The notes under the pieces are model-generated. The model was not told where the DNA came from. It saw nothing but the letters and a program-made list of their open reading frames with translations, and did not search any database. The position numbers and the translations under genes were made by a program. A DNA stretch of 64,000 bases from Escherichia coli (GTDB lineage Bacteria; Pseudomonadota; Gammaproteobacteria; Enterobacterales; Enterobacteriaceae). Shown in pieces: positions 7,744-40,742 of the stretch. The DNA lies in the NCBI GenBank assembly GCA_022969815.1, contig GCA_022969815.1_4535.1; one strand, given 5' to 3'. How positions within the stretch are numbered: the first letter of the stretch is position 1; each line of letters begins with the position of its first letter.

Positions 7744-7935
7744 TTACAAAATGACTACGTTATCTTTTTCGTGCAGTGTGGCGGTAATGTTGCGCCCTTT
7801 GTCGCACATTAGCGAGATCTTGCGGTGATGCGGTGGCACTTTCTCGATGTGCGCTACTGTCATTGTGATCCGGTGCAATTCTACTTTGTCACCTGCTTTC
7901 AATGTTGCTACGTTGCCAGTGATATTTTTAAACAT
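7744..7935 (-). CDS. hypothetical early protein, 63 aa
   Basis: in-frame ATG 7933-7935 with AAGGGG SD chosen over the longer track ORF. Confidence 0.5.
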   Translation of the reverse strand: MFKNITGNVATLKAGDKVELHRITMTVAHIEKVPPHHRKISLMCDKGRNITATLHEKDNVVIL

Positions 7936-7945
7936 GGTGCGCCCC

Positions 7946-8056
7946 TTACTTGAAAATGATTGTTGTGATAACTGCCACGGTGATCCAAAATGGAACAACC
8001 AAGATAATAGCGTTAATAGTTCCAACTGTCAAACTATTTTCTTTCTTGATCATCAT
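7946..8056 (-). CDS. small membrane peptide, 36 aa
   Basis: track ORF 7946..8176 starts with GTG inside hairpin E18; ATG 8054-8056 with AAGGA SD gives MMIKKENSLTVGTINAIILVVPFWITVAVITTIIFK. Confidence 0.3.
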   Translation of the reverse strand: MMIKKENSLTVGTINAIILVVPFWITVAVITTIIFK

Positions 8057-8169
8057 GTTTTCCTTACAGTGTCCAAAGAATGATTTCAAGTGCAGCACGG
8101 AAACCAGGAATAAAATTGATTGCAAAAAACAGGGAAGTAGTAGACATTTTTCTATCCTTTCAGTTGTGA

Positions 8170-8225
8170 GCGGCACCGTTGCCGCCCTATGAGTTAACTA
8201 TAAGTGATCACGTTTTACCTGTCAA
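8170..8225 (-). promoter_or_regulatory. early promoter-hairpin module E18
   Basis: hairpin GCGGCACCGTTGCCGC 8170-8185; -10 TTATAG (rc 8198-8203); -35 TTGACA (rc 8220-8225). Confidence 0.55.
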
Positions 8226-8779
8226 CCTAAATCATCAAAATAAAGATAATTTTTTTCGGCTTCTTTCTTCTCTTCCTGCGTTGCCTCAAAGACTGGGAGG
8301 AAGTGATCAAAGGCTATGCACTCAACCGCGTGATCGTCTTCCTCTTCCTGGTCTTCCTCCTGGGCTATGGCTGCAATTTTGGCCAATTTCCTTTCAGCCT
8401 GGATAAGCTTACCATCTAATACGCTTTTTGCAGTACTGTACGCCGTCCAGGTGATGCGCTTACTTTCGAGCGCGGCATCAAGCGCCGCTATCTTGCTGGG
8501 GTATTCATCCAGGACACGAAAAGCCGGATCTACCTTGTACAGCGGATTATCTTTCGCGCCGTCGCTATCATCTGCGGCGCTTGCAATGTCAGCGTTACCA
8601 TTCGCCAGCCAACCAGGGCGATCGCTGCGTGTTTTGGTATTCCCATGACTACGCGCCGATCTGTTGCCTACTTGCTCGCCACTATAACCAGGAGCGTGAT
8701 CGATCATGTCATCCGGTACAATACGCGGATCATTAGCGTCATGTTTTACCCAGGACTGGATCACATATTCGCGCCCCAT
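8222..8779 (-). CDS. hypothetical early protein with acidic patches, 185 aa
   Basis: ATG 8777-8779, AAGGGG SD; acidic run QEEDQEEEDD. Confidence 0.6.
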   Translation of the reverse strand: MGREYVIQSWVKHDANDPRIVPDDMIDHAPGYSGEQVGNRSARSHGNTKTRSDRPGWLANGNADIASAADDSDGAKDNPLYKVDPAFRVLDEYPSKIAALDAALESKRITWTAYSTAKSVLDGKLIQAERKLAKIAAIAQEEDQEEEDDHAVECIAFDHFLPVFEATQEEKKEAEKNYLYFDDLG

Positions 8780-26502: not shown

Positions 26503-27159
26503 ATGACAATCAAACACATTTCTTTCGATGTATGGAACACACTGATCACAGCAAACCCAAATTACGCGGATATGCGAGCTTGGACTATCGCAAAATACGG
26601 AGATATTTCGGAAGTAGAAGCAAGAGCAGCTTACAAGAAGATCAAAAAGGAACTGGATAATGCGGCACTTCAGGGAACAGCCGAGTGTGCAGCATATGCC
26701 TGGGAAAGACTTGGTTACGAACTTGGGATAACACCTTTGAAGTCTGCAAAGCTTCGTTTCGAGTGTGAACAATGGTTCCTTAAGTTTCCACCTCATGTAG
26801 CTGTGGATCTACCGATGCACTTGCTATATCTTTCGGGGCGTTATGATTTGAGCATTAAGAGCAATACCAACTTCATATCAGGAGATATCTTGCGACGTGC
26901 CTGTAAGTTTGAAAGTTGGAATTGTTTTGAGTTCACACATTTCTCGGATGAAGCTTTACTTTGTAAACCAGATCCGCGATTCTTTGCTCGCACGATCACT
27001 TATTCTCCAATCCCTCTGGTAGGGCAGGAAGTGTTGCACGTAGGTGATAGTGAAGAATATGATGGAAAATGTGTTGACGTAGGATTTAACTTCTGTCATA
27101 TTAAGAACCCTAACGACTTGTTAGATAAACTTGCTAAAGGAGAACTTGTTAATGCGTAA
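26503..27159 (+). CDS. HAD-superfamily hydrolase, 218 aa
   Basis: motif I FDVWNTL (haloacid-dehalogenase-like), motif III KPDP, motif IV GDSEEYD. Confidence 0.65.
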   Translation: MTIKHISFDVWNTLITANPNYADMRAWTIAKYGDISEVEARAAYKKIKKELDNAALQGTAECAAYAWERLGYELGITPLKSAKLRFECEQWFLKFPPHVAVDLPMHLLYLSGRYDLSIKSNTNFISGDILRRACKFESWNCFEFTHFSDEALLCKPDPRFFARTITYSPIPLVGQEVLHVGDSEEYDGKCVDVGFNFCHIKNPNDLLDKLAKGELVNA

Positions 27160-27979
27160 TCAAACTCAAATCTTTGCTCACAAATTTGATAATCTGGAAA
27201 CTGCTCGCTTTGATATTCGTGATTATTCCAAACTGAAGTTTGGTAGCAACCAGGCGGCACGCCGTATGGGGAAAACATTAGCAGTCTCTTTCTATGACTT
27301 GGTAGTCAAGAATATGCCGGAAGAAGAGTTTGTGGTGATCCCTTCACCTTACAATCATGTGCATAACGCAGCAACGATGATGACCAATCAGTTCATCAAC
27401 TTCCTGAACCTGTTGCTGTTGAATCACAAGGGTAGCCGTGCAGTAGAGTTGGATACGATCCACCGCAAGGTGAGTTACATTAACGATTATGGTTTCCTGG
27501 ACAAAGCAAGCCGTAAGAAACTGATCGACGGGGACACATTTTATTGCAACAAAGATTTTTGGGGCAACAAGAAGTTGATCTTCATTGATGATGTGAACAT
27601 CACGGGGACTCATGAAGACAAACTCATTGAGATCCTGGATGAAAACAAAGTTACAAACGATGTTTACTTCCTGTATTTTGCCAAGTACACTGGTAATCAA
27701 GCAGACACAGAAGCTAAACTGAACTTCAATCATATTAACACGACAGATGCTTTTGTTAAGATGATCAATGAAGAACAGGATGCACAATGTTTGGTTCGTC
27801 CTATCAAGTATCTGATGGGACAAGCACCGGAAGAGTTTAAAATCATTCTCTCCCGTCTGCCACACCGTTATGTAGAAGCACTGTTCTTTGGGTGTCTTGG
27901 GGAAGGTTATGACAAGATCGAGAAGTATTCTGAAAACTTCGTCTTCCTGAACCGTTACTTTAACCAACATATCCTGTAA
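27152..27979 (+). CDS. phosphoribosyltransferase-like protein, 275 aa
   Basis: PRPP-binding-loop-like LIFIDDVNITGT; ATG 27152 with AAAGGAG SD chosen. Confidence 0.5.
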   Translation: MRNQTQIFAHKFDNLETARFDIRDYSKLKFGSNQAARRMGKTLAVSFYDLVVKNMPEEEFVVIPSPYNHVHNAATMMTNQFINFLNLLLLNHKGSRAVELDTIHRKVSYINDYGFLDKASRKKLIDGDTFYCNKDFWGNKKLIFIDDVNITGTHEDKLIEILDENKVTNDVYFLYFAKYTGNQADTEAKLNFNHINTTDAFVKMINEEQDAQCLVRPIKYLMGQAPEEFKIILSRLPHRYVEALFFGCLGEGYDKIEKYSENFVFLNRYFNQHIL

Positions 27980-27988
27980 GGAGGCAAA

Positions 27989-28462
27989 ATGTTGAAGGTT
28001 GTTACTGGGAATCTGATCGATGCAGCCAAGAATGGGGAAGTGAACGTTATAGCCCACTGTTGTAACTGTATGTGTAATATGGGTGCAGGAATTGCTCCGC
28101 AAATTAAACGAGCATTTCCTTATGCATATGCAGCAGATCTGGGCACAATGGCAGGTGATCAAAGTAAGTTAGGTTATTTTAGTTTAGGGGTGCCAGACGA
28201 ACAATCAGATCCTTTGGTATATAATCTATACGGGCAGTATCGTTATGGATACAATGCTAAAGGTCGTCAGTTGGACTATGATGCCCTCTACGATGCACTA
28301 ATAGCTATGGCTAATGATTTGCTTCTCCGTGACCAAAAATGTAAGATCGGTTTACCTATGATTGGAGCGGGACACGCTGGAGGTAATTGGGCTATCATCC
28401 AAGTGATGATTGAAGAAACTTTAGTAAAAACAGGTCACGATGTGACTATCTATAAACTTTAA
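27989..28462 (+). CDS. macro-domain protein, 157 aa
   Basis: VVTGNLIDA...VNVIAHCCNC...GAGIA and later GAGHAGG match the macro-domain (ADP-ribose binding/hydrolase) pattern. Confidence 0.7.
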   Translation: MLKVVTGNLIDAAKNGEVNVIAHCCNCMCNMGAGIAPQIKRAFPYAYAADLGTMAGDQSKLGYFSLGVPDEQSDPLVYNLYGQYRYGYNAKGRQLDYDALYDALIAMANDLLLRDQKCKIGLPMIGAGHAGGNWAIIQVMIEETLVKTGHDVTIYKL

Positions 28463-28475
28463 GAGGAGAAATATT

Positions 28476-28697
28476 ATGGGCGTTTTAGCAGGTATTCTTG
28501 CAGTGATTATTGTGTTTGTTATTGCTTTTCTGATCAGTATGATTCCAGCATGGCTTCTGCTGCTGGCTTATAACTACGTTGTTGAAATGATGGGTCACAC
28601 AGATATCACTGTTCCTATCACCTTCTGGACTGTGGTGTGTGTGGCATTTATCATGGCTGTACTACGTGGGATCTTTTCCTCAAGTTCTTCAAAATAA
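28476..28697 (+). CDS. small membrane protein with two hydrophobic segments, 73 aa
   Basis: AGGAG SD; predicted TM segments. Confidence 0.55.
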   Translation: MGVLAGILAVIIVFVIAFLISMIPAWLLLLAYNYVVEMMGHTDITVPITFWTVVCVAFIMAVLRGIFSSSSSK

Positions 28698-28700
28698 GTG

Positions 28701-28759
28701 TTGACAAAGTTTTAGAATAGAGTAAGATGTATCACATGAGGCGGGGAGTGGTTCCCCGC
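28701..28759 (+). promoter_or_regulatory. early-type promoter-hairpin module on the + strand, upstream of terC
   Basis: -35 TTGACA 28701-28706, 16-nt spacer, -10 TAAGAT 28723-28728, then GTATCACAT and hairpin GCGGGGAGTGGTTCCCCGC 28741-28759. Confidence 0.65.
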
Positions 28760-28778
28760 AAAGAGAAAGGAGAAAATA

Positions 28779-29753
28779 ATGCAACTTGGTTTCCCCATTA
28801 TTGATGTAGTGGTTCTGGTAGGTATCTTAGTACTGTCTATTGCGGTGGATTTTTTCGGGCACCGTGAGAACAAGGAGATCTCATTCAAATCAGCAGTCGG
28901 TTGGTCAATCTTTTGGATTGGGGTGTCACTGGCGTACTACGGTTTTGTATACTTCCAACATGGCGCTGACTTCGCCAACCTGTTCCTAAGTGGGTATGTG
29001 TTAGAGAAGTCGCTTTCGGTAGATAACTTAGTTGTGTTTGTGGCAGTGTTCACCAGTTTCGGTATTAAGAGCACGCACTTACAACATAAGATTCTGCTGT
29101 GGGGTATTGCAGGTGCGATTGTCTTCCGAGGTGTGTTTGTAGCAGCAGGTACTTACTTGTTAAGTTTGGGCTGGTATGTTAACATTATCTTCGGTGCTGT
29201 TATCCTGTTCTGTGCATTCAAAATGGTAATGGCTGGCGGGGATGATGAAGAAGTTGATTACTCTAAACATTGGGCTACCCGCGTCGTTCGTAAACTGTTC
29301 CCAGTATCGGATCAGATGGATGGTGAGAAGTTCTTCACGATTAAGAATGGTGTTCGTGTAGCAACTCCGGCTCTGGTTTGTGTGTTCGTGATGGAAATGG
29401 TAGATGTGATCTTTGCAGTAGACTCGGTTCCGGCTGTAATTGCAGTGACACAAGAACCTCTGCTGGTGTTCTCTTCGATGCTCTGTGCAATCTTAGGCTT
29501 ACGTGCTCTGTTCTTTGTTCTTAGTGTGGCCCTGAAGTATCTGGTTCACCTGGAGAAAGCAGTTATCGCGGTACTGGTGTTTGTTGGTGTGAAACTGATG
29601 TATCACCCGTTTGCAGAAACGCTGCACGCAAAAGTGAGCTTCCTGCCAGCGCATATTGACCCGACGATCAGCATGTATATCGTGCTTGGTACTCTGACCC
29701 TGGGCGTGATTGCAAGTTTCATCTTCCCTGAAAAAGAAGAAGCTACCGCTTAA
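28779..29753 (+). CDS. terC: TerC-family integral membrane protein, 324 aa
   Basis: multiple TM helices and the TerC signature EKSLSVDNL. Confidence 0.8.
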   Translation: MQLGFPIIDVVVLVGILVLSIAVDFFGHRENKEISFKSAVGWSIFWIGVSLAYYGFVYFQHGADFANLFLSGYVLEKSLSVDNLVVFVAVFTSFGIKSTHLQHKILLWGIAGAIVFRGVFVAAGTYLLSLGWYVNIIFGAVILFCAFKMVMAGGDDEEVDYSKHWATRVVRKLFPVSDQMDGEKFFTIKNGVRVATPALVCVFVMEMVDVIFAVDSVPAVIAVTQEPLLVFSSMLCAILGLRALFFVLSVALKYLVHLEKAVIAVLVFVGVKLMYHPFAETLHAKVSFLPAHIDPTISMYIVLGTLTLGVIASFIFPEKEEATA

Positions 29754-29761
29754 TACCAATG

Positions 29762-29786
29762 AACCTCCTTCGGGAGGTTTCTTACT
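29762..29786 (+). terminator. candidate intrinsic terminator after terC
   Basis: AACCTCC-TTCG-GGAGGTT followed by a T-rich tract. Confidence 0.55.
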
Positions 29787-29801
29787 AACATAGGAGGAAT
29801 T

Positions 29802-31273: not shown

Positions 31274-31864
31274 ATGAATACCGAGAGAGATTTAAAACTC
31301 TTGTGGTGGGAAGTGATGCAGGAGATCAAGGAAGATTTCCCTGTTTACTACAACATGCTACGTGAAGCTGGATATACGGCTTGCGTTAGGAACAAAGTGA
31401 ATAACTCTTTCGGTTGGTGCAACTACCGAGAAAAGATTGTTGTTGTGAATTGGTACTTGCATAAAAACTCCACAAGGGATATGATAGTGGACACAATGAA
31501 GCATGAAATTGCTCATGCTATTGATGGTTGTATGGGTAAGTTCAGTCGTCATGGACCACACTGGCAAAAACTGGCAGCAGAGTTGGGAGCCAATCCTAAA
31601 GCTACTTCCAAAGAACCGTTCAATCATGAATACAAATATGTTCTTGTTTTGGTAGACAGATTTGCCACAAGATGTGTTAGAGGGTATAATCGTAAACCTA
31701 ACCGTATGACTCCAGGGAAACAACCACATATTTGGTTGAAGAGTGATAAAGAGGGGACAGAAGGAAAAATATGGTTGTATAAATGGGAAGATTGGGTTAA
31801 AGTAGCTAAAGAATATGGTGTTTCACCTTACACAAGAGAAATAGAAGAGGAGAATGAAGAATGA
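31274..31864 (+). CDS. SprT-like zinc metallopeptidase, 196 aa
   Basis: HExxH motif MKHEIAHAIDG with a downstream H and SprT-like N-terminal region. Confidence 0.6.
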   Translation: MNTERDLKLLWWEVMQEIKEDFPVYYNMLREAGYTACVRNKVNNSFGWCNYREKIVVVNWYLHKNSTRDMIVDTMKHEIAHAIDGCMGKFSRHGPHWQKLAAELGANPKATSKEPFNHEYKYVLVLVDRFATRCVRGYNRKPNRMTPGKQPHIWLKSDKEGTEGKIWLYKWEDWVKVAKEYGVSPYTREIEEENEE

Positions 31865-32973
31865 CAAGTCCATTTTTGAAAGCGGCAACTGGTGGTCAAA
31901 AGAAATCTGAAACGAGTGTACTGACTGCTACTACAGACGCAAGCAAGTCCGTGTTCGCTCCGAGTGTCCTGGATGCAAGTCCGGTGTATGCTCCAGCAGC
32001 GCCAAAAGCTGTGCCTACCCTGCCAACAATGTCTCGTAAAGAGATTGAAGAAGTAGGTGCAGAAGCAGGTTTAACTCTCCGTTCTCTGAACGCTGAAGTG
32101 CTGAAGCACCAACGTAGCAATCAAGGTGACGAAATGAGTCAACGCCTTACCGCCTTGATTAAACAAGCCAAACAGCTTGATCCTGCCTCCATTAAGCAGA
32201 GTAAAGGTGTAGGTAAACTCATCAAGAAACTGATGGGGATGAAAGAAGATCTCTTCGGCGAGTTTGATAACGTGAACAACCGTATCGAAGAACTCGTTAA
32301 GAATCTTCAAATGGATATCCGTAAAGAAGAAGACTCTCTGGTGTACCTGGAGAAGCTGCACCAGGCGATCGGGCAGTACGCCGCAAGTCTGAATCGTGAT
32401 ATGGAATTACTCACAGCAGCTTATGAGCAAGAACTGGCTACTTTTGAAGCCACACCAGAAGATGATGTAGAAGCCCGTCAGAGCGTCCGTGACACGCTTG
32501 ATCTTCTGGAGATACGTATTGCTGACTTAAAGGCATTACGCTTGCTGTGCGTGCAAATGGGGCCGCGTGTACTGGGTATGCAGAAAGTATCTGCCAGCCT
32601 CATGCGTTCTGCTCGTAATATTGTGAACAATGTGATTCCTGCTTACTCTGCCAACTTCTCAATGTATATTGAAAGTCTGCGCCAGAAGAAAGCAGCAGAA
32701 ACACAGAACAACGTTCTGGACGAGTTCAACCTGGCAATCAAACTGGGTAGCGATCTTGCCACACAGAATCAGATCGAAGCAGCAGCACTGGCTAACCGCC
32801 AAGTGTTGGATATTGAAACCCTGCGTCACGATCAGGAAAACTTGGTTAAGATGTTGGAAGAAACTAACCGCATCAATACGGAAGCCCGTGCTGCCCGTGT
32901 TGATTACATCAATGAAGTTCAATCTCTCGAAGATGGGATGGTTGATGCTGTTAAGAAGGGGCTTGGTAAATGA
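31861..32973 (+). CDS. coiled-coil protein, possibly TelA-like, 370 aa
   Basis: long helical, charged repeats; size and composition are compatible with TelA-type proteins; family assignment unverified. Confidence 0.55.
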   Translation: MTSPFLKAATGGQKKSETSVLTATTDASKSVFAPSVLDASPVYAPAAPKAVPTLPTMSRKEIEEVGAEAGLTLRSLNAEVLKHQRSNQGDEMSQRLTALIKQAKQLDPASIKQSKGVGKLIKKLMGMKEDLFGEFDNVNNRIEELVKNLQMDIRKEEDSLVYLEKLHQAIGQYAASLNRDMELLTAAYEQELATFEATPEDDVEARQSVRDTLDLLEIRIADLKALRLLCVQMGPRVLGMQKVSASLMRSARNIVNNVIPAYSANFSMYIESLRQKKAAETQNNVLDEFNLAIKLGSDLATQNQIEAAALANRQVLDIETLRHDQENLVKMLEETNRINTEARAARVDYINEVQSLEDGMVDAVKKGLGK

Positions 32974-33334: not shown

Positions 33335-33530
33335 CTACGAGAACGACCCTAACATTATCCAGTTAACTCGACAAGAACTGATCACAATCATGGAAGATGC
33401 TTTTATCGATGGGTGGAAGACTCAAAACTATGATTGGAGTGGCCCAGAAGACTTTCTGCGTCTTCATAAAGAGTATGACGAGTCCAGTGAGACGACTATT
33501 GCCATTGACGATCTTAAGGCAGGTGTATAA
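33327..33530 (+). CDS. hypothetical protein, 67 aa
   Basis: GGAGGGAG SD. Confidence 0.5.
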   Translation: MFNYENDPNIIQLTRQELITIMEDAFIDGWKTQNYDWSGPEDFLRLHKEYDESSETTIAIDDLKAGV

Positions 33531-34099
33531 TGGGTTGCTTTAGTTTTCTGTGTAAGGAGTCGGGCAAAGCTGCCCTCTCCACCTCTTTCGATGGATCTCC
33601 TTGCTATCTCTTTCTACTGAAAGATGGAAAGGTTATCGAAGAGATGCACGGCAATTATGATAGTTATGGGCGTGTCTTCTCCAGTAAGCAGGATGCTCAC
33701 GGGAACAGAGAAAGCTTTAAATGGACTATACCTTGGAGCGACGTTTGTGATCTTATGTTCTCTGTAAACCGTGGAGACGGTATTGCTATGGTTTTAGCAG
33801 AACACTTTACAGGAGAAGCCCCCACAGAACGATCCGAGGATGATCCTAATCAAGGTTGGGGAGACGGAGAAGAAGAGGAAGAAGAGGATTATTTCTACAG
33901 CACCGAAAATAATATTTTCAAACGTGTTGACAACCCTTATCATAAAGTGCATAATGTCCTCACTGAAACAGAAGACGACAAAATGGAAATTGAAGAAGAT
34001 GATCCTCTTGTAACACTGCCTACAAGCGAGTTACAAAAAATCATCAAAGAAGCTTACGATTTGGGCTTCAAAACTGGTAAAGGAGGAGTTAATGTTTGA
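33530..34099 (+). CDS. hypothetical protein with polyacidic tract, 189 aa
   Basis: GEEEEEEDYFY acidic run. Confidence 0.55.
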   Translation: MGCFSFLCKESGKAALSTSFDGSPCYLFLLKDGKVIEEMHGNYDSYGRVFSSKQDAHGNRESFKWTIPWSDVCDLMFSVNRGDGIAMVLAEHFTGEAPTERSEDDPNQGWGDGEEEEEEDYFYSTENNIFKRVDNPYHKVHNVLTETEDDKMEIEEDDPLVTLPTSELQKIIKEAYDLGFKTGKGGVNV

Positions 34100-34364
34100 T
34101 TTTAAAATAAAAGATTCAAAACCCCAAGACGTAGCGGTTCGCTTCGAAGAGTTGGGGATTGGTGAAACTTTCATGTATTATTCAGCATACGAAGAAAATG
34201 GTTTGGATACATTTGCAAACTTAGTATTTCTTAAAAGCGGCGGCGCGACTGCTGTTTGTTTGAATAGTTCATCAAGAGGGAGTGTTCATACCGTATCCCC
34301 AGATGTGCCGATGGTTGCAGTTCGTTTAGTAGTTACCGATATTACACTTACAGAGGAGAAATAA
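34092..34364 (+). CDS. hypothetical protein, 90 aa (paralog of 35386..35667)
   Basis: shared F.IK(K)DSKP...SAY(E/D)E(N/D)GLD pattern. Confidence 0.5.
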   Translation: MFDFKIKDSKPQDVAVRFEELGIGETFMYYSAYEENGLDTFANLVFLKSGGATAVCLNSSSRGSVHTVSPDVPMVAVRLVVTDITLTEEK

Positions 34365-34365
34365 T

Positions 34366-35166
34366 ATGTCCAATAAAATTAGCCTGAAGAAACGCCAAGA
34401 CACCCTGACCATTTCACTGAAGAAAAAGAAAATCGTGAACGAAGATCAAAAGATCGTTCTGCGTGTTGCAAGTGCACTGGATATCTCCGGTAGCATGTCC
34501 AGCCTGTATCGTAACGGTACTGTAAGTGAGTTTGTTGGTAAGTTGCTTCCGTTTGGTATGCTGTTCGATGATAACGCGCAGATCGATATGTGGGCTTTCA
34601 ACAATAGCTCTCGTGAAATCACTCCAGCAACTGCTGATGTGTATGATGATTACGTTGGTAAATGCATTAATGGTCGTGTAACAGTCCAGGGTGGCACAAG
34701 CTATGCACCTGTTATGCAGGATATTTACGATTCCTACTTCGGTAGCACCACTAAATATGAAACTGTAGAAACTCCTGTAACCAAAGAAGTTCCTAAGAAA
34801 GGTTTCTTCAACCGTTTACTGGGTAAAACTGAAACTGTAGAAGCTGTTGTAGAAAAAACTGTAGCCGTTGCTGTGCCTGGTGTAGACGTTACTCCGGCAG
34901 TTGTGTTCTTCCAGACAGATGGTGAGAACGATGATCCGAGCCGTGTACTCTCCGTACTGGAAAAGAACAAGGGTAAACCTATCTACTGGTTCATGGTGGG
35001 TGTTGGTAGTGCTCGTTTCTCTTTCCTGAAAGATTTGGCTGAAGCTTACGACAACGTAGCATTCATTGGTCTGAACGATCTTTCCTTGACAGACGAGCAG
35101 CTTTACGATAAACTCTTGTCTGAAGAGTTCGGTGAGTGGGTCGAAAAGGTTGGTGCTAAGAAATGA
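34366..35166 (+). CDS. vWA-domain protein (TerY-like), 266 aa
   Basis: MIDAS motifs DISGSM, GGTSY, QTDGEND; N-terminus ISLKK...ISLKK like the TerD-type protein downstream. Confidence 0.7.
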   Translation: MSNKISLKKRQDTLTISLKKKKIVNEDQKIVLRVASALDISGSMSSLYRNGTVSEFVGKLLPFGMLFDDNAQIDMWAFNNSSREITPATADVYDDYVGKCINGRVTVQGGTSYAPVMQDIYDSYFGSTTKYETVETPVTKEVPKKGFFNRLLGKTETVEAVVEKTVAVAVPGVDVTPAVVFFQTDGENDDPSRVLSVLEKNKGKPIYWFMVGVGSARFSFLKDLAEAYDNVAFIGLNDLSLTDEQLYDKLLSEEFGEWVEKVGAKK

Positions 35167-35405
35167 TCGACACGCTGATCTCTCAAACGGTGTTACAAGT
35201 GATGCGCGAGAGAGAAGCTTTCATCATGAAGGGTCTTAAAGATTACTTTGGGACTCTTTCTTTGGAAGAACTCAAGCTACGCGTTGAAATCCATCAGTAT
35301 CCTTTTTATGAAGAATGGATTGACAAAGCAAATAAAGCTGTTATAATGCGTATCAACAAACCAGAAATCACGACAGGAGGACAAGATGTTAAATTTCGCC
35401 ATTAA
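35163..35405 (+). CDS. hypothetical protein, 80 aa
   Basis: ATGA overlap. Confidence 0.5.
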   Translation: MIDTLISQTVLQVMREREAFIMKGLKDYFGTLSLEELKLRVEIHQYPFYEEWIDKANKAVIMRINKPEITTGGQDVKFRH

Positions 35406-35667
35406 GAAAGATAGCAAACCAGAGATTCAGACTTGTCGCATTGCAAATCTTACACATCGGGATTTGTTTGTTCTGAAAAGCGCCTACGATGAAGACGGTC
35501 TTGACCCAGAAGCAGTCATCGTTTATATGGTATTGCGGCGAGACGAAGACACCAAGCACCCATATAATGCGGTAGAAATGAATTACAATGCAATGTTGTG
35601 TTCAATACACCATACGGCAGAGTTGGTGCAGGTAGAGTTAACAGTTAACGAAATTAAACTTAAATAA
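35386..35667 (+). CDS. hypothetical protein, 93 aa (paralog of 34092..34364)
   Basis: AGGAGG SD; shared pattern with 34092..34364. Confidence 0.5.
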   Translation: MLNFAIKKDSKPEIQTCRIANLTHRDLFVLKSAYDEDGLDPEAVIVYMVLRRDEDTKHPYNAVEMNYNAMLCSIHHTAELVQVELTVNEIKLK

Positions 35668-35682
35668 TAGAGGAGACATATA

Positions 35683-36285
35683 ATGAGCGATAAAATTTCC
35701 CTGAAAAAAGGTTCCACCGACAAGATTTCCCTGAAGAAAGTTGCTCCGGCACTGAAAGAACTGCGTCTGGAGTTCTCCTGGAAATCAAACTCTAAACTGG
35801 ATCTGGATGTAAGCGCACTGGTATGCCGACACAACGCTTCTGGCAACCCTGAAATGCTGTCTGCACGTCATCTGGTTTGTTATGCTAACAAGTTTGATCC
35901 AGAACGTTCTGTATTCGCGGGTGATGATGTTCGTGACGGTACTGGTCAAATGGAACAGATCGATGTAACCTTGGCTAAGATCTCCGATAAAGCCGAAGAG
36001 ATTGCTTTTGTCCTGACTATTGATGATGAAACGGGTCAGAAACGTCTGGGTCACGCTACTGAAGGTATGCTGAAGATTTTCGATTCCGAACGTAACGTAG
36101 AGATCCTGGACTTCGACTTCCTGGCTCCTGAAGTAGCTGGTAACACGATCTGCCACGTAGCTTCCTTGGTTCGTGAAGACGGCGAATGGAAACTGAAAGC
36201 TTACGGTGTTGGTAAAGCAGGTATGGATATCTGTGATGTGGTTATGGCCTTCGGTGGTCAGAAAGAATGGTATGATTGCCCGTAA
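35683..36285 (+). CDS. terD: TerD-family protein, 200 aa
   Basis: ISLKKG...ISLKK, LDLDVSALV, FAGDDVRDGTGQMEQIDV, EIAFVLTIDDE, EDGEWKLKAYGVG match the TerD/TerZ/TerE domain pattern. Confidence 0.8.
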   Translation: MSDKISLKKGSTDKISLKKVAPALKELRLEFSWKSNSKLDLDVSALVCRHNASGNPEMLSARHLVCYANKFDPERSVFAGDDVRDGTGQMEQIDVTLAKISDKAEEIAFVLTIDDETGQKRLGHATEGMLKIFDSERNVEILDFDFLAPEVAGNTICHVASLVREDGEWKLKAYGVGKAGMDICDVVMAFGGQKEWYDCP

Positions 36286-36322
36286 GATTTAACTGAAATG
36301 TTGTTGGGGGAGAAATCCCCCA

Positions 36323-36351
36323 TTGCAAAAACGCCTCTCATGTGTTATACT
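36323..36351 (+). promoter_or_regulatory. sigma70-type promoter for the hydrolase gene
   Basis: -35 TTGCAA 36323-36328, 17-nt spacer, -10 TATACT 36346-36351; hairpin GGGGGAGAAATCCCCC 36306-36321 just upstream. Confidence 0.6.
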
Positions 36352-36382
36352 GGTAGTTCATTCACCCAAAAGGAGGCAAAAT

Positions 36383-36904
36383 TTGCTGATAAAAAACTTT
36401 GTAACAGTTGCGTTACTATCCTTAACTGCTTTTACATTTACACCTGTCACGGCAACCGCCGAAGCTGCAAACGTAAAGACTGCTAAAGTAGTTCACAAAT
36501 GTGCAAAGCAAGATACTAAAGAAAATCTCTTAGCTTGTGCAATTTACGCTGAAAGTCGTAATCAGGGTAAACGTGGAATGTATGCTGTAGGTAACGTAGT
36601 ATTGAACAGGAAAGGTGATGATTACTTCCCTGACAATATTAAAGATATTCTCTTCCAACGGGGACAATTCTCTTACAGGAAGAAGTTTAACGTTACTGAA
36701 GCAGAGCGATGGAAAGAAGCTAAAGCTATCGCAAAACGACTTATATACCTGGATACAAACTTCCCTACACTTAGAGAAGCCCAGGACATGACAAAAGGTG
36801 CGACATTTTTTAAGAAAGTAAAAACCCGTGCACACTGGACAAAAGATATGGTCTTAGTGTATCGTTATAAAGAACATCAGTTCTACTCACCGACAAGGAG
36901 CTAA
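36383..36904 (+). CDS. SleB-like cell-wall hydrolase with signal peptide (probable endolysin), 173 aa
   Basis: hydrolase motifs LACAIYAESRNQGKRGMYAVGNVVLNRKG...FP...QRGQFS; TTG start 36383 six nt after AGGAGG; cleavable signal-like N-terminus VTVALLSLTAFTFTPVTATAEA. Confidence 0.7.
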   Translation: MLIKNFVTVALLSLTAFTFTPVTATAEAANVKTAKVVHKCAKQDTKENLLACAIYAESRNQGKRGMYAVGNVVLNRKGDDYFPDNIKDILFQRGQFSYRKKFNVTEAERWKEAKAIAKRLIYLDTNFPTLREAQDMTKGATFFKKVKTRAHWTKDMVLVYRYKEHQFYSPTRS

Positions 36905-37601: not shown

Positions 37602-38165
37602 ATGATTTATTATATTACCCCGTATCTGACTGGAGATATCGGCAAAGCAATTAACGATGCTATTGCCGTTCTTCATGAAGATAGTTGGGTGTGTTTACGT
37701 GATACAGATACCATGTTCTTACTGCCAGACCAACCTTCCATGTTGGAAGATTTGGTAGCAACCAACCCACCGTTCGATGTAATCGGTGCATCCTGTAACC
37801 GTTTAGGCAGTAGTTATCAACTCCTCGGCGGAAAGATTGATGATGATCCTGACATTCTGAACCATATTTCTCATGCCAAAGTTGCTCGTGATTACTATGG
37901 TGATGAAATTGAGGAAGTCCCACAAGGCACTCCCTTGGCAGGTTTCTTCCTATTGTTCAGGAAATCATTATGGAAGGAGATCCCTTTTGAAGAACGTAGC
38001 ATCCAGTTCGATATAATCTTCTCAAACACTTTACATGAACGAGGGAAAAGGTTAGGATTGATGCGTGGGATGTATCTCTTCCACATTTACCGTTTAGGTC
38101 AAAAAGATCCTCAACGGGCAATATCACACCTCATGCATTGTCATGATCACCGGAAAACTATTTAG
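37602..38165 (+). CDS. hypothetical protein, 187 aa (possible transferase)
   Basis: sits at the head of the glycosyltransferase cluster; no firm motif. Confidence 0.5.
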   Translation: MIYYITPYLTGDIGKAINDAIAVLHEDSWVCLRDTDTMFLLPDQPSMLEDLVATNPPFDVIGASCNRLGSSYQLLGGKIDDDPDILNHISHAKVARDYYGDEIEEVPQGTPLAGFFLLFRKSLWKEIPFEERSIQFDIIFSNTLHERGKRLGLMRGMYLFHIYRLGQKDPQRAISHLMHCHDHRKTI

Positions 38166-38173
38166 GGGGAAAG

Positions 38174-38857
38174 ATGGAAAATGTTAAAATTGGGGTTGGC
38201 GTTATCACTGTAGGCGTTCGTCCACTTAAAGATTACATGGTTGCACCTGGTGTAGACTTCAAAGTGTTTCACGATCCCGATCGTAAAGGTGTAGCTTATG
38301 CTCGCAACCAATTGATGAAACAGTTCTACGATGAAGGTTTTGACTACTGGTTTATTTTCGACGATGATTGCTATCCAGTTAAACGTGGTTGGGAAGAATA
38401 CTTCGTTAACCAGGCTGTCGAGAATGGTTGGGACTTCTTCGGTATGCCAGAATACTTCAAAGATACTGTGATCGGTTGTTCTGGAGAAGTAGTCTTCTGG
38501 GAATTGGCTATGTGTCAGTTTGCAATGTATTCTCGTGCAATTGTTGAGACGATGGGTTATTTCCGCCCGTATACGCACGGATATGGTTTTGAAGATGCGG
38601 AATGGACTAACCGTCTGAAAGCTTCAGGTTTGAATAAAGGACTCCAGGGCGTACCTTGCCCGATGCGCATTATGGCGTACATTCACCCCGACGATGTTTT
38701 CGGAGACAACCCTTTACCTTTTGCGAATCTGACGAAAGAAGAGAAAGAAGCAGCAATCGGGATCAACTGGGAAGAATACAAACTATCTTTGGAGGATATC
38801 AATAATGGCAAAACATACATCTCTTTTGAAGAGGCTGAAGGATATGGCGTTAAATAA
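38174..38857 (+). CDS. GT-A (family 2-like) glycosyltransferase, 227 aa
   Basis: GVGVITVGVRP...KGVAYARNQLM...YWFIFDDDCYP (ARN motif and DxD). Confidence 0.65.
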   Translation: MENVKIGVGVITVGVRPLKDYMVAPGVDFKVFHDPDRKGVAYARNQLMKQFYDEGFDYWFIFDDDCYPVKRGWEEYFVNQAVENGWDFFGMPEYFKDTVIGCSGEVVFWELAMCQFAMYSRAIVETMGYFRPYTHGYGFEDAEWTNRLKASGLNKGLQGVPCPMRIMAYIHPDDVFGDNPLPFANLTKEEKEAAIGINWEEYKLSLEDINNGKTYISFEEAEGYGVK

Positions 38858-39791
38858 GAAACCAACCCTACTGTGCGATAACAAATTCAACAGTGGTTGT
38901 GATTATCATCGCATTGTTATGCCATTTTCTCACATAGAGATCAAGCCACGTACTGATGTACTGGTCTTTAACCGCATCTTCTCGAAAGGTTCTGATGAAG
39001 TAGCCAAACTTAAGCGTCAAGGTGTTAAGATTGTTGTAGATTTGGATGATTTCTATCAGTTGAATCCAGAGCACTACCTTGCGCATCTGTACGCGCCAAA
39101 CACCCGCACCATTGTGGAAATGGTTAAATTGGCAGATGCGGTCATCGTGACAACAGAATACCTGGCATATAAAATTCGTCACTTAAACTCTAATGTTGTT
39201 GTGATCCGAAATGCTCTACCGTTCGATGATGACCAGTTCACTCTCTCGAATGATCGTACTTCGGGTACGCCTATTATCTGGGCTGGAGGTGCAAGTCATG
39301 AGCCTGATTTACGTTTGCTTTCAAATACTTTTGATGATAGTCTGTTGTCTATCGCAGGGTATGAAGCGAGCAGCACAGTGACAGGGCAAGAGTGGGTTAA
39401 GATTCGCCGTAGTTTGCCTAATGCGCAGTATAAACCTGCTGTACATTCTTTGGATGAGTATATGTCGGCATACGATGGTCACGCTATGGCGGTAGCCCCG
39501 TTAGTAGATAATGACTTCAACCATTGCAAGAGCAACCTGAAAGTATTAGAAGCTGGTGCTAAAGGCATTCCAATCGTTTGTTCTAAGGTATTACCTTACT
39601 ACAACCCGATCGATGCCCGTGCAGTAACCTTCGCAGATAGCAAGGCAGAGTGGCACTATGAAGTTGTAAAACTACTTCGTAATCCAAACTACCGTGAAGA
39701 TCGTGGACTGTTCTTGGCTGAACATGTTCGTACTCATTACAACTTGAAGGATGCAAACGAATTGCGTCGTCAAGTGATCGAAAGTCTATAG
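38844..39791 (+). CDS. GT-B-type glycosyltransferase, 315 aa (paralog 1)
   Basis: C-terminal K.NLK.LEAGAKG.P.VCS nucleotide-sugar-binding-like motif; ATG 38844 chosen by length match to the paralog (alternative ATG 38805). Confidence 0.6.
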   Translation: MALNKKPTLLCDNKFNSGCDYHRIVMPFSHIEIKPRTDVLVFNRIFSKGSDEVAKLKRQGVKIVVDLDDFYQLNPEHYLAHLYAPNTRTIVEMVKLADAVIVTTEYLAYKIRHLNSNVVVIRNALPFDDDQFTLSNDRTSGTPIIWAGGASHEPDLRLLSNTFDDSLLSIAGYEASSTVTGQEWVKIRRSLPNAQYKPAVHSLDEYMSAYDGHAMAVAPLVDNDFNHCKSNLKVLEAGAKGIPIVCSKVLPYYNPIDARAVTFADSKAEWHYEVVKLLRNPNYREDRGLFLAEHVRTHYNLKDANELRRQVIESL

Positions 39792-39797
39792 GTGTCT

Positions 39798-40742
39798 ATG
39801 GGACAAATTATTCTTGACAATCGTGCTGGAAAAGAATATAGTGTCTGCGATTATCACCGAGTAATGCTGCCTTACACAAGGCAGTTCTCGGCTCAACCGT
39901 CACAGAACGTATATGTCTTTAACGGTGTCCCTACAAAAGGGAAACAAGGTTTCATAGCCCTTAAGAGCATGGGTTTTAAGATGGTAATGGATTTGGATGA
40001 CTCCTTAAACATTCCTCAAGGACACATGCTGGAAGACATTTTTGATGCAGGTATTCGAGAAGACTTGCAATGGTTTCTTGAACGTAGCGATCTTGTGACG
40101 ACAACAACACCTGCTCTCCAGGTGGAACTGTCCCAGTACAATCCTAACGTACATATTATTCCAAATGGCTTACCGTTTGATGAGGATCAGTTCACGTTAA
40201 CTCGTGATCGCTATTCCAAATCGCCGATAGTATGGGCTGGAAGTGAAACACATAAACAAGATTTAGCTCTACTGCCGAATTTTGGAAGGGATTTAACAAT
40301 CTGCGGATTCCGTAGAGATAGTGAAGTCTTAAGTAGTAAGCAATGGACTGACATACGTGAAAAAGTGGCTCCAAGCTGCAATTATGAGGCTGTTAGACCA
40401 TATGAGAGCTATATGGAATCTTATGATGGTCATCAAATAATGCTTGCGCCTTTGACCGATAACCTGTTTAATAACGCCAAAAGTAACCTTAAGATTCTGG
40501 AGGCTGGTGCCAAGGGTCTGCCTTTGGTCTGTTCTCCTCGTGAGAATTACTTCACAGAAGAGTTTAAGGATTTACTGTTCTTTGCAGAATCAAGAAGTGA
40601 ATGGGAAGATATTGTTAATTACCTGATCCAAGAACCTGATGTGGGGATCGAGAAGGGATTGGCTTTAGCTAAATATGTTCGTAAGCATTATCACATTGAT
40701 GTGCTGAATGAACGCCGTAGATTATTATTTGAGGAGCTATAA
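39798..40742 (+). CDS. GT-B-type glycosyltransferase, 314 aa (paralog 2)
   Basis: about 35-40% identical by eye to 38844..39791 (CDYHR, PNGLPFDEDQFTL, LEAGAKGLPLVCS); ATG 39798 (track start is GTG 39792). Confidence 0.6.
   Translation: MGQIILDNRAGKEYSVCDYHRVMLPYTRQFSAQPSQNVYVFNGVPTKGKQGFIALKSMGFKMVMDLDDSLNIPQGHMLEDIFDAGIREDLQWFLERSDLVTTTTPALQVELSQYNPNVHIIPNGLPFDEDQFTLTRDRYSKSPIVWAGSETHKQDLALLPNFGRDLTICGFRRDSEVLSSKQWTDIREKVAPSCNYEAVRPYESYMESYDGHQIMLAPLTDNLFNNAKSNLKILEAGAKGLPLVCSPRENYFTEEFKDLLFFAESRSEWEDIVNYLIQEPDVGIEKGLALAKYVRKHYHIDVLNERRRLLFEEL

Follow-up and report, generated by a model that had tools for sequence, protein, structure and literature searches.

The locus described here lies in a 64-kb stretch of DNA from an Escherichia coli assembly (contig GCA_022969815.1_4535.1), referred to as the window, and forms part of a phage Ter module. 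On the + strand, the full gene order is a 189-amino-acid (aa) open reading frame (ORF), a small gene called small A (34092..34364, 90 aa), a vWA-TerF-like gene (34366..35166, 266 aa), an 80-aa ORF called X (35163..35405), a second small gene called small B (35386..35667, 93 aa), a TerD gene (35683..36285, 200 aa), and the gene for a SleB-type cell-wall hydrolase. A preliminary description of this DNA had taken the two small genes to be paralogs, each directly preceding a protein that begins ISLKK...ISLKK, and had suggested that a partner pair was duplicated and then diverged. The placement is as described, with the stop codon of small A 1 nt before the vWA start and that of small B 15 nt before the TerD start, but the two pairs are not adjacent: they are separated by the unrelated X, whose start overlaps the vWA stop (ATGA) and whose end overlaps the start of small B by 20 nt. 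As a phage Ter module the locus belongs to a known class of system; particular to its lineage is a duplicated SH3-like gene, each copy apparently being expressed together with a Ter protein.

Small A and small B align end to end with 33% identity (E 7e-10), a significant similarity that bears out their proposed paralogy. Both match the phrog_11278 profile, small A as an A-type member (E 2.9e-28, positions 1-92 of 92) and small B as a B-type member (E 7.4e-15, positions 1-89 of 92). An exhaustive search of 1.84 billion representative proteins with a profile of the small family gave just 14 matches, 10 of them short phage-type proteins. Four giant bacterial surface proteins (P0112, P0113, P0118 and P0120, with 4-9 matching stretches each) were considered as members and judged spurious, because the matches are short, each covering about 35 residues of Calx-beta/Ig/cadherin-type repeats like 'AAEDNDGLDGTAVIV', inflated by repetition, and because such stretches do not suit the SH3-like model of small A. 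A word-indexed homolog search with small A returned one near-identical copy and nothing else. By tblastn, the family is confined to Stephanstirmvirinae-type phages, with two copies in Phapecoctavirus and one in Justusliebigvirus, and a hidden Markov model (HMM) of the family found no further member in the window, none in four unrelated Ter-bearing phages and none in 80 bacterial vWA loci. In the records examined the small genes are annotated as hypothetical proteins throughout. All of the proteins in the family are acidic, with isoelectric points of 4.3-5.5 and net charges of -2 to -11.

AlphaFold predicts small A to be an SH3-like β-barrel, with a predicted local distance difference test score (pLDDT) of 87; run on the single sequence, it gave no usable model (pLDDT 37). 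Among the best fold matches of the model are RNA-binding SH3-like/KOW-type barrels (ribosomal L2, EF-P domain I and Spt5 KOW). The predicted fold is the same small SH3-like β-barrel as is found in FeoA, the DtxR/IdeR C-terminal domain, KOW/EF-P domain I, Tudor and HspQ, and small domains of this kind (FeoA, Tudor, HspQ etc.) often serve as peptide- or partner-binding modules. Small A has no sequence-profile match or strong structural match to any one named SH3-like family (FeoA, KOW, Tudor or the DtxR C-terminal domain).

The preliminary description was also right in calling the two downstream products a vWA protein and a TerD-type protein, both matches being well above the Pfam thresholds. 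The vWA protein matches PF10138 (129.5 bits against a cut-off of 29.4, E 2.4e-37) in two stretches split by an insertion, and its metal ion-dependent adhesion site (MIDAS) motif is DISGS, at residues 38-42. The insertion, at residues ~129-170 (34752-34874), is made of short direct DNA repeats (AAACTGTAGAA...) that encode an E/T/V-rich sequence, ETVETPVTKEV...KTETVEAVVEKTVAVAV. There is no PF02342 match anywhere in the 266 aa of this standalone protein, which carries only a 17-residue hairpin-like segment before the vWA domain and so is not TerF proper. This N-terminal extension, KISLKKRQDTLTISLKK (residues 4-20, nt 34375-34425), resembles the N-terminal segment of TerD. A sequence search of solved structures found none matching the vWA protein. 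The TerD protein matches PF02342 with 102.5 bits (cut-off 25.3, E 2.6e-29), its residues 5-180 corresponding to positions 3-178 of 187, and its own N-terminal segment is KISLKKGSTDKISLKK (residues 4-19, nt 35692-35739).

The vWA and TerD proteins start with MSNKISLKKRQDTLTISLKK and MSDKISLKKGSTDKISLKK, respectively. The shared ISLKK...ISLKK start noted earlier is therefore real, 14 of the 20 residues being identical (E 0.007). Among six-frame ORFs of 60 aa or longer in the window (41,525 residues), ISLKK occurs four times, always at the N-termini of these two proteins, and the double motif is found nowhere else. Past residue 20, pairwise alignment finds no similarity between the two proteins, and by Pfam assignment the folds differ, vWA being α/β and TerD a β-sandwich. 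Judged by their sequences, the vWA and TerD genes are not paralogs, and the small gene alone is duplicated; the proposed duplication of a partner pair thus holds for its small member and fails for its large one. The 41 nt spanning the ribosome-binding site and the first eight codons are 78% identical between the vWA and TerD genes. Within the shared start, one gene has Ser codons TCC/AGC where the other has AGC/TCC, and this swap of codon boxes implies that the likeness comes from the Shine-Dalgarno sequence and the encoded peptide, which argues against recent common DNA ancestry.

For TerD, MSxKISLKK...ISLKK is simply how the domain canonically begins, with the Pfam match starting at residue 5. 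For the vWA proteins, a strict motif, [ILV][SDNT]LxK, was counted in the 50 residues before the MIDAS sequence DxSGS. At least two such motifs are present there in 88 of 107 vWA-TerF-like homologs. The motif count before the MIDAS in 68 distant homologs is 157, compared with 3.7 ± 1.8 in shuffled sequences, and the motif density is 5.06 per 100 residues upstream of the MIDAS but 0.01 downstream. The window protein has two motifs, approximately 33 and 22 residues before the MIDAS, and distant bacterial vWA homologs have the motif extension too. In fusions of TerD and vWA (P0102-P0106), the repeats sit between a complete TerD domain and the vWA domain, and the extension is therefore no relic of a lost TerD domain. 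Rather, it is an integral, family-wide N-terminal extension, and no trace of a local duplication.

Comparison of phages shows that the vWA extension and the TerD start are alike within a genome and change together between genomes. ISLKK is found in both proteins of the window and VSLKK in both proteins of a metagenomic relative (L007), while Klebsiella phage KP13-16 has LSLEK in vWA and LNLEK and LSLDK in its TerD starts, CcrColossus has INLAK and INLTK, and RHph_TM21B has LDLTK and LDLNK. The co-variation was quantified using 80 bacterial vWA-TerF-like loci (L022-L101) together with phages (L018-L021 and the window); TerD was located by HMM, segments were extracted in register, lineages were de-replicated at <50% vWA identity, and only TerD genes in separate ORFs were used. 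Pairs from the same genome score 32.2 and cross-genome pairs 25.9 (n=16 lineages, permutation p = 5e-5). The effect is also seen in bacteria alone (n=12, p = 2.5e-4), with de-replication at <40% vWA identity (n=7, p = 0.005) and when the three strongest lineages are left out (p = 0.006). A Ruminococcus locus shows it most clearly, with a rare Met variant in both proteins (INMSKDNKIDMTK in vWA and INMSKNQKISMTK in TerD). Amino-acid composition was rejected as the cause, shuffled TerD segments giving 0.49 ± 0.70 against an observed 5.34. Gene conversion between the 5' ends of the two genes was likewise rejected, the same codon being used in 59 of 119 identical residues, where 59.3 are expected (z -0.06). 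Since codon sharing shows no excess over the expectation from codon usage, the co-variation appears to be due to selection on the proteins, not to exchange of DNA. The relation between the vWA extension and TerD was not found in the searchable literature, which does not cover the 2012 comparative-genomics paper on Ter, and an earlier mention is possible.

The charge of the segment varies with the presence of the small gene. In lineages with a small gene, the net charge of the hairpin is about +5.4 in vWA and +5.3 in TerD, whereas in those without it the values are about +2.1 and +1.9. In KP13-16 (L018; Stephanstirmvirinae, with no genus assigned), the nearest relative without a small gene, the hairpin charges are +3, 0 and 0. 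We note that the order in this phage is TerC ... vWA, two TerD paralogs, a 292-aa gene and TelA, with no member of the small family, and that its hairpin motifs (LSLEK, LNLEK, LSLDK) are neutral.

In every context examined, the small gene adjoins a TerD gene, a vWA-TerF-like gene, or both. Four layouts were seen, these being small-vWA-TerD, vWA-small-TerD, small-TerD and A-vWA-X-B-TerD, with stop and start codons that overlap or are almost contiguous. A single small gene stands before vWA in the phi92-like phages; among metagenomic relatives, a single copy stands before vWA in L009-L011, between vWA and TerD in L007 and L008, and before TerD in L006, at the start of a short contig; the doubled arrangement is seen in L012-L015. 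X occurs just where small B is present. It was considered as a third paralog of the small family and rejected (hhalign probability 0.1), and also as a remnant of the 189-aa gene, which would point to a segmental duplication, and was rejected again, BLASTP giving no alignment; its own family is phrog_22387. A bootstrapped neighbor-joining tree of the small family supports the A-type clade at 90% and the B-type group at 60%, while the two window copies as sisters have 0% support. From the first and last of these values, the duplication of the small gene is old. The phi92-like phages (Justusliebigvirus) have A-vWA-TerD, without X or small B, and their TerD retains the ISLKK start. Because the phi92-like small gene nests within the A-type clade, these phages have probably lost X and small B. 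In the phi92-like phages, where X and small B are missing, an unrelated 200-aa gene (7779-8381 in Escherichia phage outra, L004) lies between TerD and the hydrolase; the TerD-hydrolase part of the module has been remodelled between Phapecoctavirus and Justusliebigvirus.

The locus has two predicted promoters. A σ70-like site on the + strand (33927..33955, TTGACA-17-CATAAT, 11/12 matches) lies inside the 189-aa gene, with its 3' end 136 nt before the start of small A, and is found at the same distance before small A in three Phapecoctavirus genomes (L001-L003) and in L004 (Justusliebigvirus). Inside X, also on the + strand, is a perfect consensus with an extended -10 TG (35320..35347, TTGACA-16-TATAAT, 12/12), its 3' end 38 nt before small B, which is the sole 12/12 σ70 site on either strand of the window. 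This site is unchanged in place in L001, L002, L003, L012 and L013, despite the low identity of X (59%) and small B (42%) between the window and SKA64. A 10/12 site precedes the TerD unit, with or without its small gene, in lineages with other layouts. Beyond TerD, a G+C-rich hairpin of the type GGGGGAG-AAAU-CUCCCCC (36305..36322, + strand) begins 20 nt past the stop codon, with a minimum free energy of -15.3 kcal/mol (z -3.07 against shuffles). It has no T-run and so is not called a terminator, but is a possible 3' boundary of the unit formed by small B and TerD. A further promoter-like site (36323-36351) directly follows the hairpin, ahead of the hydrolase gene. The conservation of the promoter-like sites suggests two early units driven by the host polymerase, one consisting of small A, vWA and X and the other of small B and TerD.

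These observations lead to a proposal for how the module may work. From the first promoter-like site small A, the vWA-TerF-like protein and X would be expressed, and from the perfect σ70 site small B and TerD, up to the hairpin. The vWA and TerD proteins would work together through the hairpin-like segment, either by pairing with each other or by both docking on one site. The small proteins would be lineage-specific accessory subunits of vWA and TerD in the phage Ter system, acting as an adaptor, assembly chaperone or capping factor, and after duplication each would have specialised for the Ter protein encoded next to it. We consider this proposal to have an even chance of being correct. That each small protein partners its downstream protein is plausible. 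The acidic small proteins could possibly bind the unusually basic hairpin; the higher hairpin charge in lineages with a small gene hints at such docking, this being effectively a single observation as the carriers are one clade. A more specific version holds that the vWA extension mimics the first two β-strands of TerD, that vWA and TerD assemble through it by strand exchange or a shared docking site, and that the small proteins are dedicated caps or chaperones, one paralog per client, which time the formation of the complex during infection. In this detailed form the proposal is speculative and distinctly unlikely to hold as a whole.

Several points weigh against the small proteins being accessory subunits. 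Their SH3-like fold match is generic. The small gene is absent from Klebsiella phage KP13-16, from the Caulobacter and Rhizobium phages and from all of the bacterial loci examined, and is therefore dispensable for vWA and TerD generally, and small B is missing even from the phi92-like phages. The small proteins also far outpace their proposed partners in divergence: comparison of the window with the SKA64 orthologs gives identities of 51% for small A and 42% for small B, which is the fastest-evolving gene of the module, but 73% for vWA and 91% for TerD, as for TelA. The promoters are consensus matches only. Finally, the carriers of the small gene all belong to a single group of related phages, in which synteny is conserved (TelA ... 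vWA, TerD, Hydrolase_2), so that both the adjacency and the correlation with charge represent few independent events, and possibly one. Much of this is what would be expected under the main rival explanation, that the small genes are simply early phage genes that evolve quickly and do something unrelated to Ter, for example in host takeover, and are placed where they are by inherited gene order in one clade; their absence from Ter loci outside this clade and the lack of a match to a known family fit this equally. However, the adjacency to vWA or TerD persists while the position shifts (before vWA, between vWA and TerD, or both), among lineages sharing just ~45-60% vWA identity in which other small neighbors vary. 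The overlapping or nearly abutting stop and start codons, and the dedicated, perfectly conserved predicted promoter of small B and TerD, also count against it, and we regard this explanation as unlikely on balance. If it were true, and the small proteins were unrelated passengers, the locus would be an ordinary phage Ter module.

The position of each small gene immediately 5' of a Ter gene, the 78% identity of the two initiation regions over 41 nt, and the RNA-binding barrels among the best fold matches of small A could alternatively indicate that the small proteins bind RNA and regulate translation of the Ter gene downstream, recognising the similar initiation regions (AGAGGAGAnATAnnATG plus the first codons). 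This is improbable, given that the net charge of -2 to -11 is unusual for RNA binders, that a strong Shine-Dalgarno sequence and a conserved peptide motif account for the DNA similarity, and that the phi92-like TerD has the same start with no small gene upstream. The initiation regions were also part of the case for the duplication of a whole cassette, in which a small gene and a Ter gene with an ISLKK start gave rise to both small A-vWA and small B-TerD, as were the paralogy of the small genes, the MSxKISLKK...ISLKK start of both downstream genes and the σ70-like promoter 5' of each pair. Here the evidence is decidedly unfavorable: the downstream proteins have different folds and share nothing past residue 20, the motif is an ancient trait of the TerD and vWA-TerF-like families in bacteria, fusions included, the Ser codons come from different boxes with overall codon sharing as expected, the single-copy relatives hold the small gene at either position, and X, which lies between the pairs, has no counterpart before small A. 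Cassette duplication is thus effectively refuted for the large genes, and as an account of the locus it is highly improbable. The proposal of accessory subunits that act on vWA and TerD remains the one that we prefer.

Over the 4.6 kb around the locus, identity is 96% with Escherichia phage phiWec188 and ~78-82% with many Phapecoctavirus genomes. These phages (phAPEC8-like, ~150 kb; subfamily Stephanstirmvirinae) keep the gene order of the locus, and the window comes from an E. coli myovirus of the Phapecoctavirus type whose Ter system is nearly complete (PRTase_3, TerC, TelA, vWA-TerF-like and TerD). Upstream of the locus on the + strand are PRTase_3 (27131-27979, E 4.9e-41), TerC (28779-29753, E 3.1e-39) and TelA (31861-32973, E 1.8e-34), with weak matches to HAD-like (26503-27159) and Macro-like (27989-28462) proteins, and a SprT-like gene (31274-31864) labelled from annotated relatives and precomputed Pfam matches on related loci. 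PRTase_3, TerC and the two weak matches (26503-29753) form the 'nucleotide-signal' half of a Ter system, beside the half made up of vWA, TerD and TelA. Between TelA and small A are several small ORFs and then the 189-aa ORF (33530-34099, phrog_14928), which overlaps the start of small A by 8 nt. Its product starts MGCFSFLCKESG and has an acidic middle; the gene is always 5' of small A in both Phapecoctavirus and Justusliebigvirus, and may be part of the same module. Just 3' of the hydrolase are four consecutive predicted glycosyltransferase-like genes (37602-40742), the SKA64 counterparts of which are annotated as glycosyltransferases. The G+C content is ~0.44-0.49 in TerC, TelA, vWA and TerD (28750-29800, 31900-32950, 34450-35200 and 35800-36400) compared with ~0.37-0.42 in the intervening small ORFs, and these four genes use CTG, GGT and CGT-type codons, both features being compatible with either high expression or acquisition from a host. 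The PADLOC-DB v2 defence models gave no match for small A, vWA, X, small B, TerD, TelA or the 189-aa protein, nor did the NCBIfam family library for the module proteins scanned.

Many bacteria, plasmids and large phages carry Ter systems, which are linked to resistance to tellurite, colicins and phages and have TerD paralogs, the TerF-type vWA protein and TelA as their soluble components. The co-varying TerD-like hairpin on vWA-TerF-like proteins is a candidate surface for an interaction between vWA and TerD, and is of interest beyond the annotation of this locus; should strand mimicry prove correct, it would give a first tangible lead on complex formation by the soluble Ter proteins. The phage-only small family likewise offers a genetic handle on the use that the phage makes of its Ter module.

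For the Ter systems of bacteria and large phages (terZABCDEF, telA, and yceCDEFGH/ycbR of Bacillus subtilis), PMC7824862 cites Anantharaman, Iyer and Aravind (2012), and Ter genes in phages are noted both there and in PMC8386662. The window has the same components as these systems (PRTase_3, TerC, TelA, vWA-TerF-like and TerD), and its phage carries an abbreviated Ter operon, as do phiKp34 and the Caulobacter jumbo phages. What sets the window apart is a small SH3-like family found only in phages and duplicated in Phapecoctavirus, whose genes are interspersed with vWA and TerD here but absent from the Ter loci examined in bacteria and other phages. TerF, from which the Pfam name vWA-TerF-like derives, consists of a TerD domain and a C-terminal vWA domain, and shares with the phage vWA protein both PF10138 and the PhiSLxK repeats directly before vWA. 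In contrast to TerF, the phage protein stands alone and has no TerD domain, just a hairpin segment like that of TerD at its N-terminus, and TerD is encoded separately. Alignment of the phage TerD with Klebsiella pneumoniae TerD (2KXT/2KXV) and a Streptomyces TerD-like protein (3IBZ) covers its residues 5-180 and takes in the N-terminal segment, residue 5 falling opposite residue 3 of 3IBZ and 2KXT. The acidic loop of the K. pneumoniae structure, of the type GDNxTGEGDGDDE, is a Ca2+ site; the phage protein has GDDVRDGTGQMEQ here, keeping part of the acidic and Gly positions. At the N-terminus, the phage sequence ISLKKGSTDKISLKK aligns with VSLSKGG-NVSLTK in 3IBZ and VSLSKGG-NVSLSK in 2KXT, and the phage motif differs from that of these solved TerD proteins in having three residues more spacing and a much more basic character (KISLKKGSTDKISLKK).

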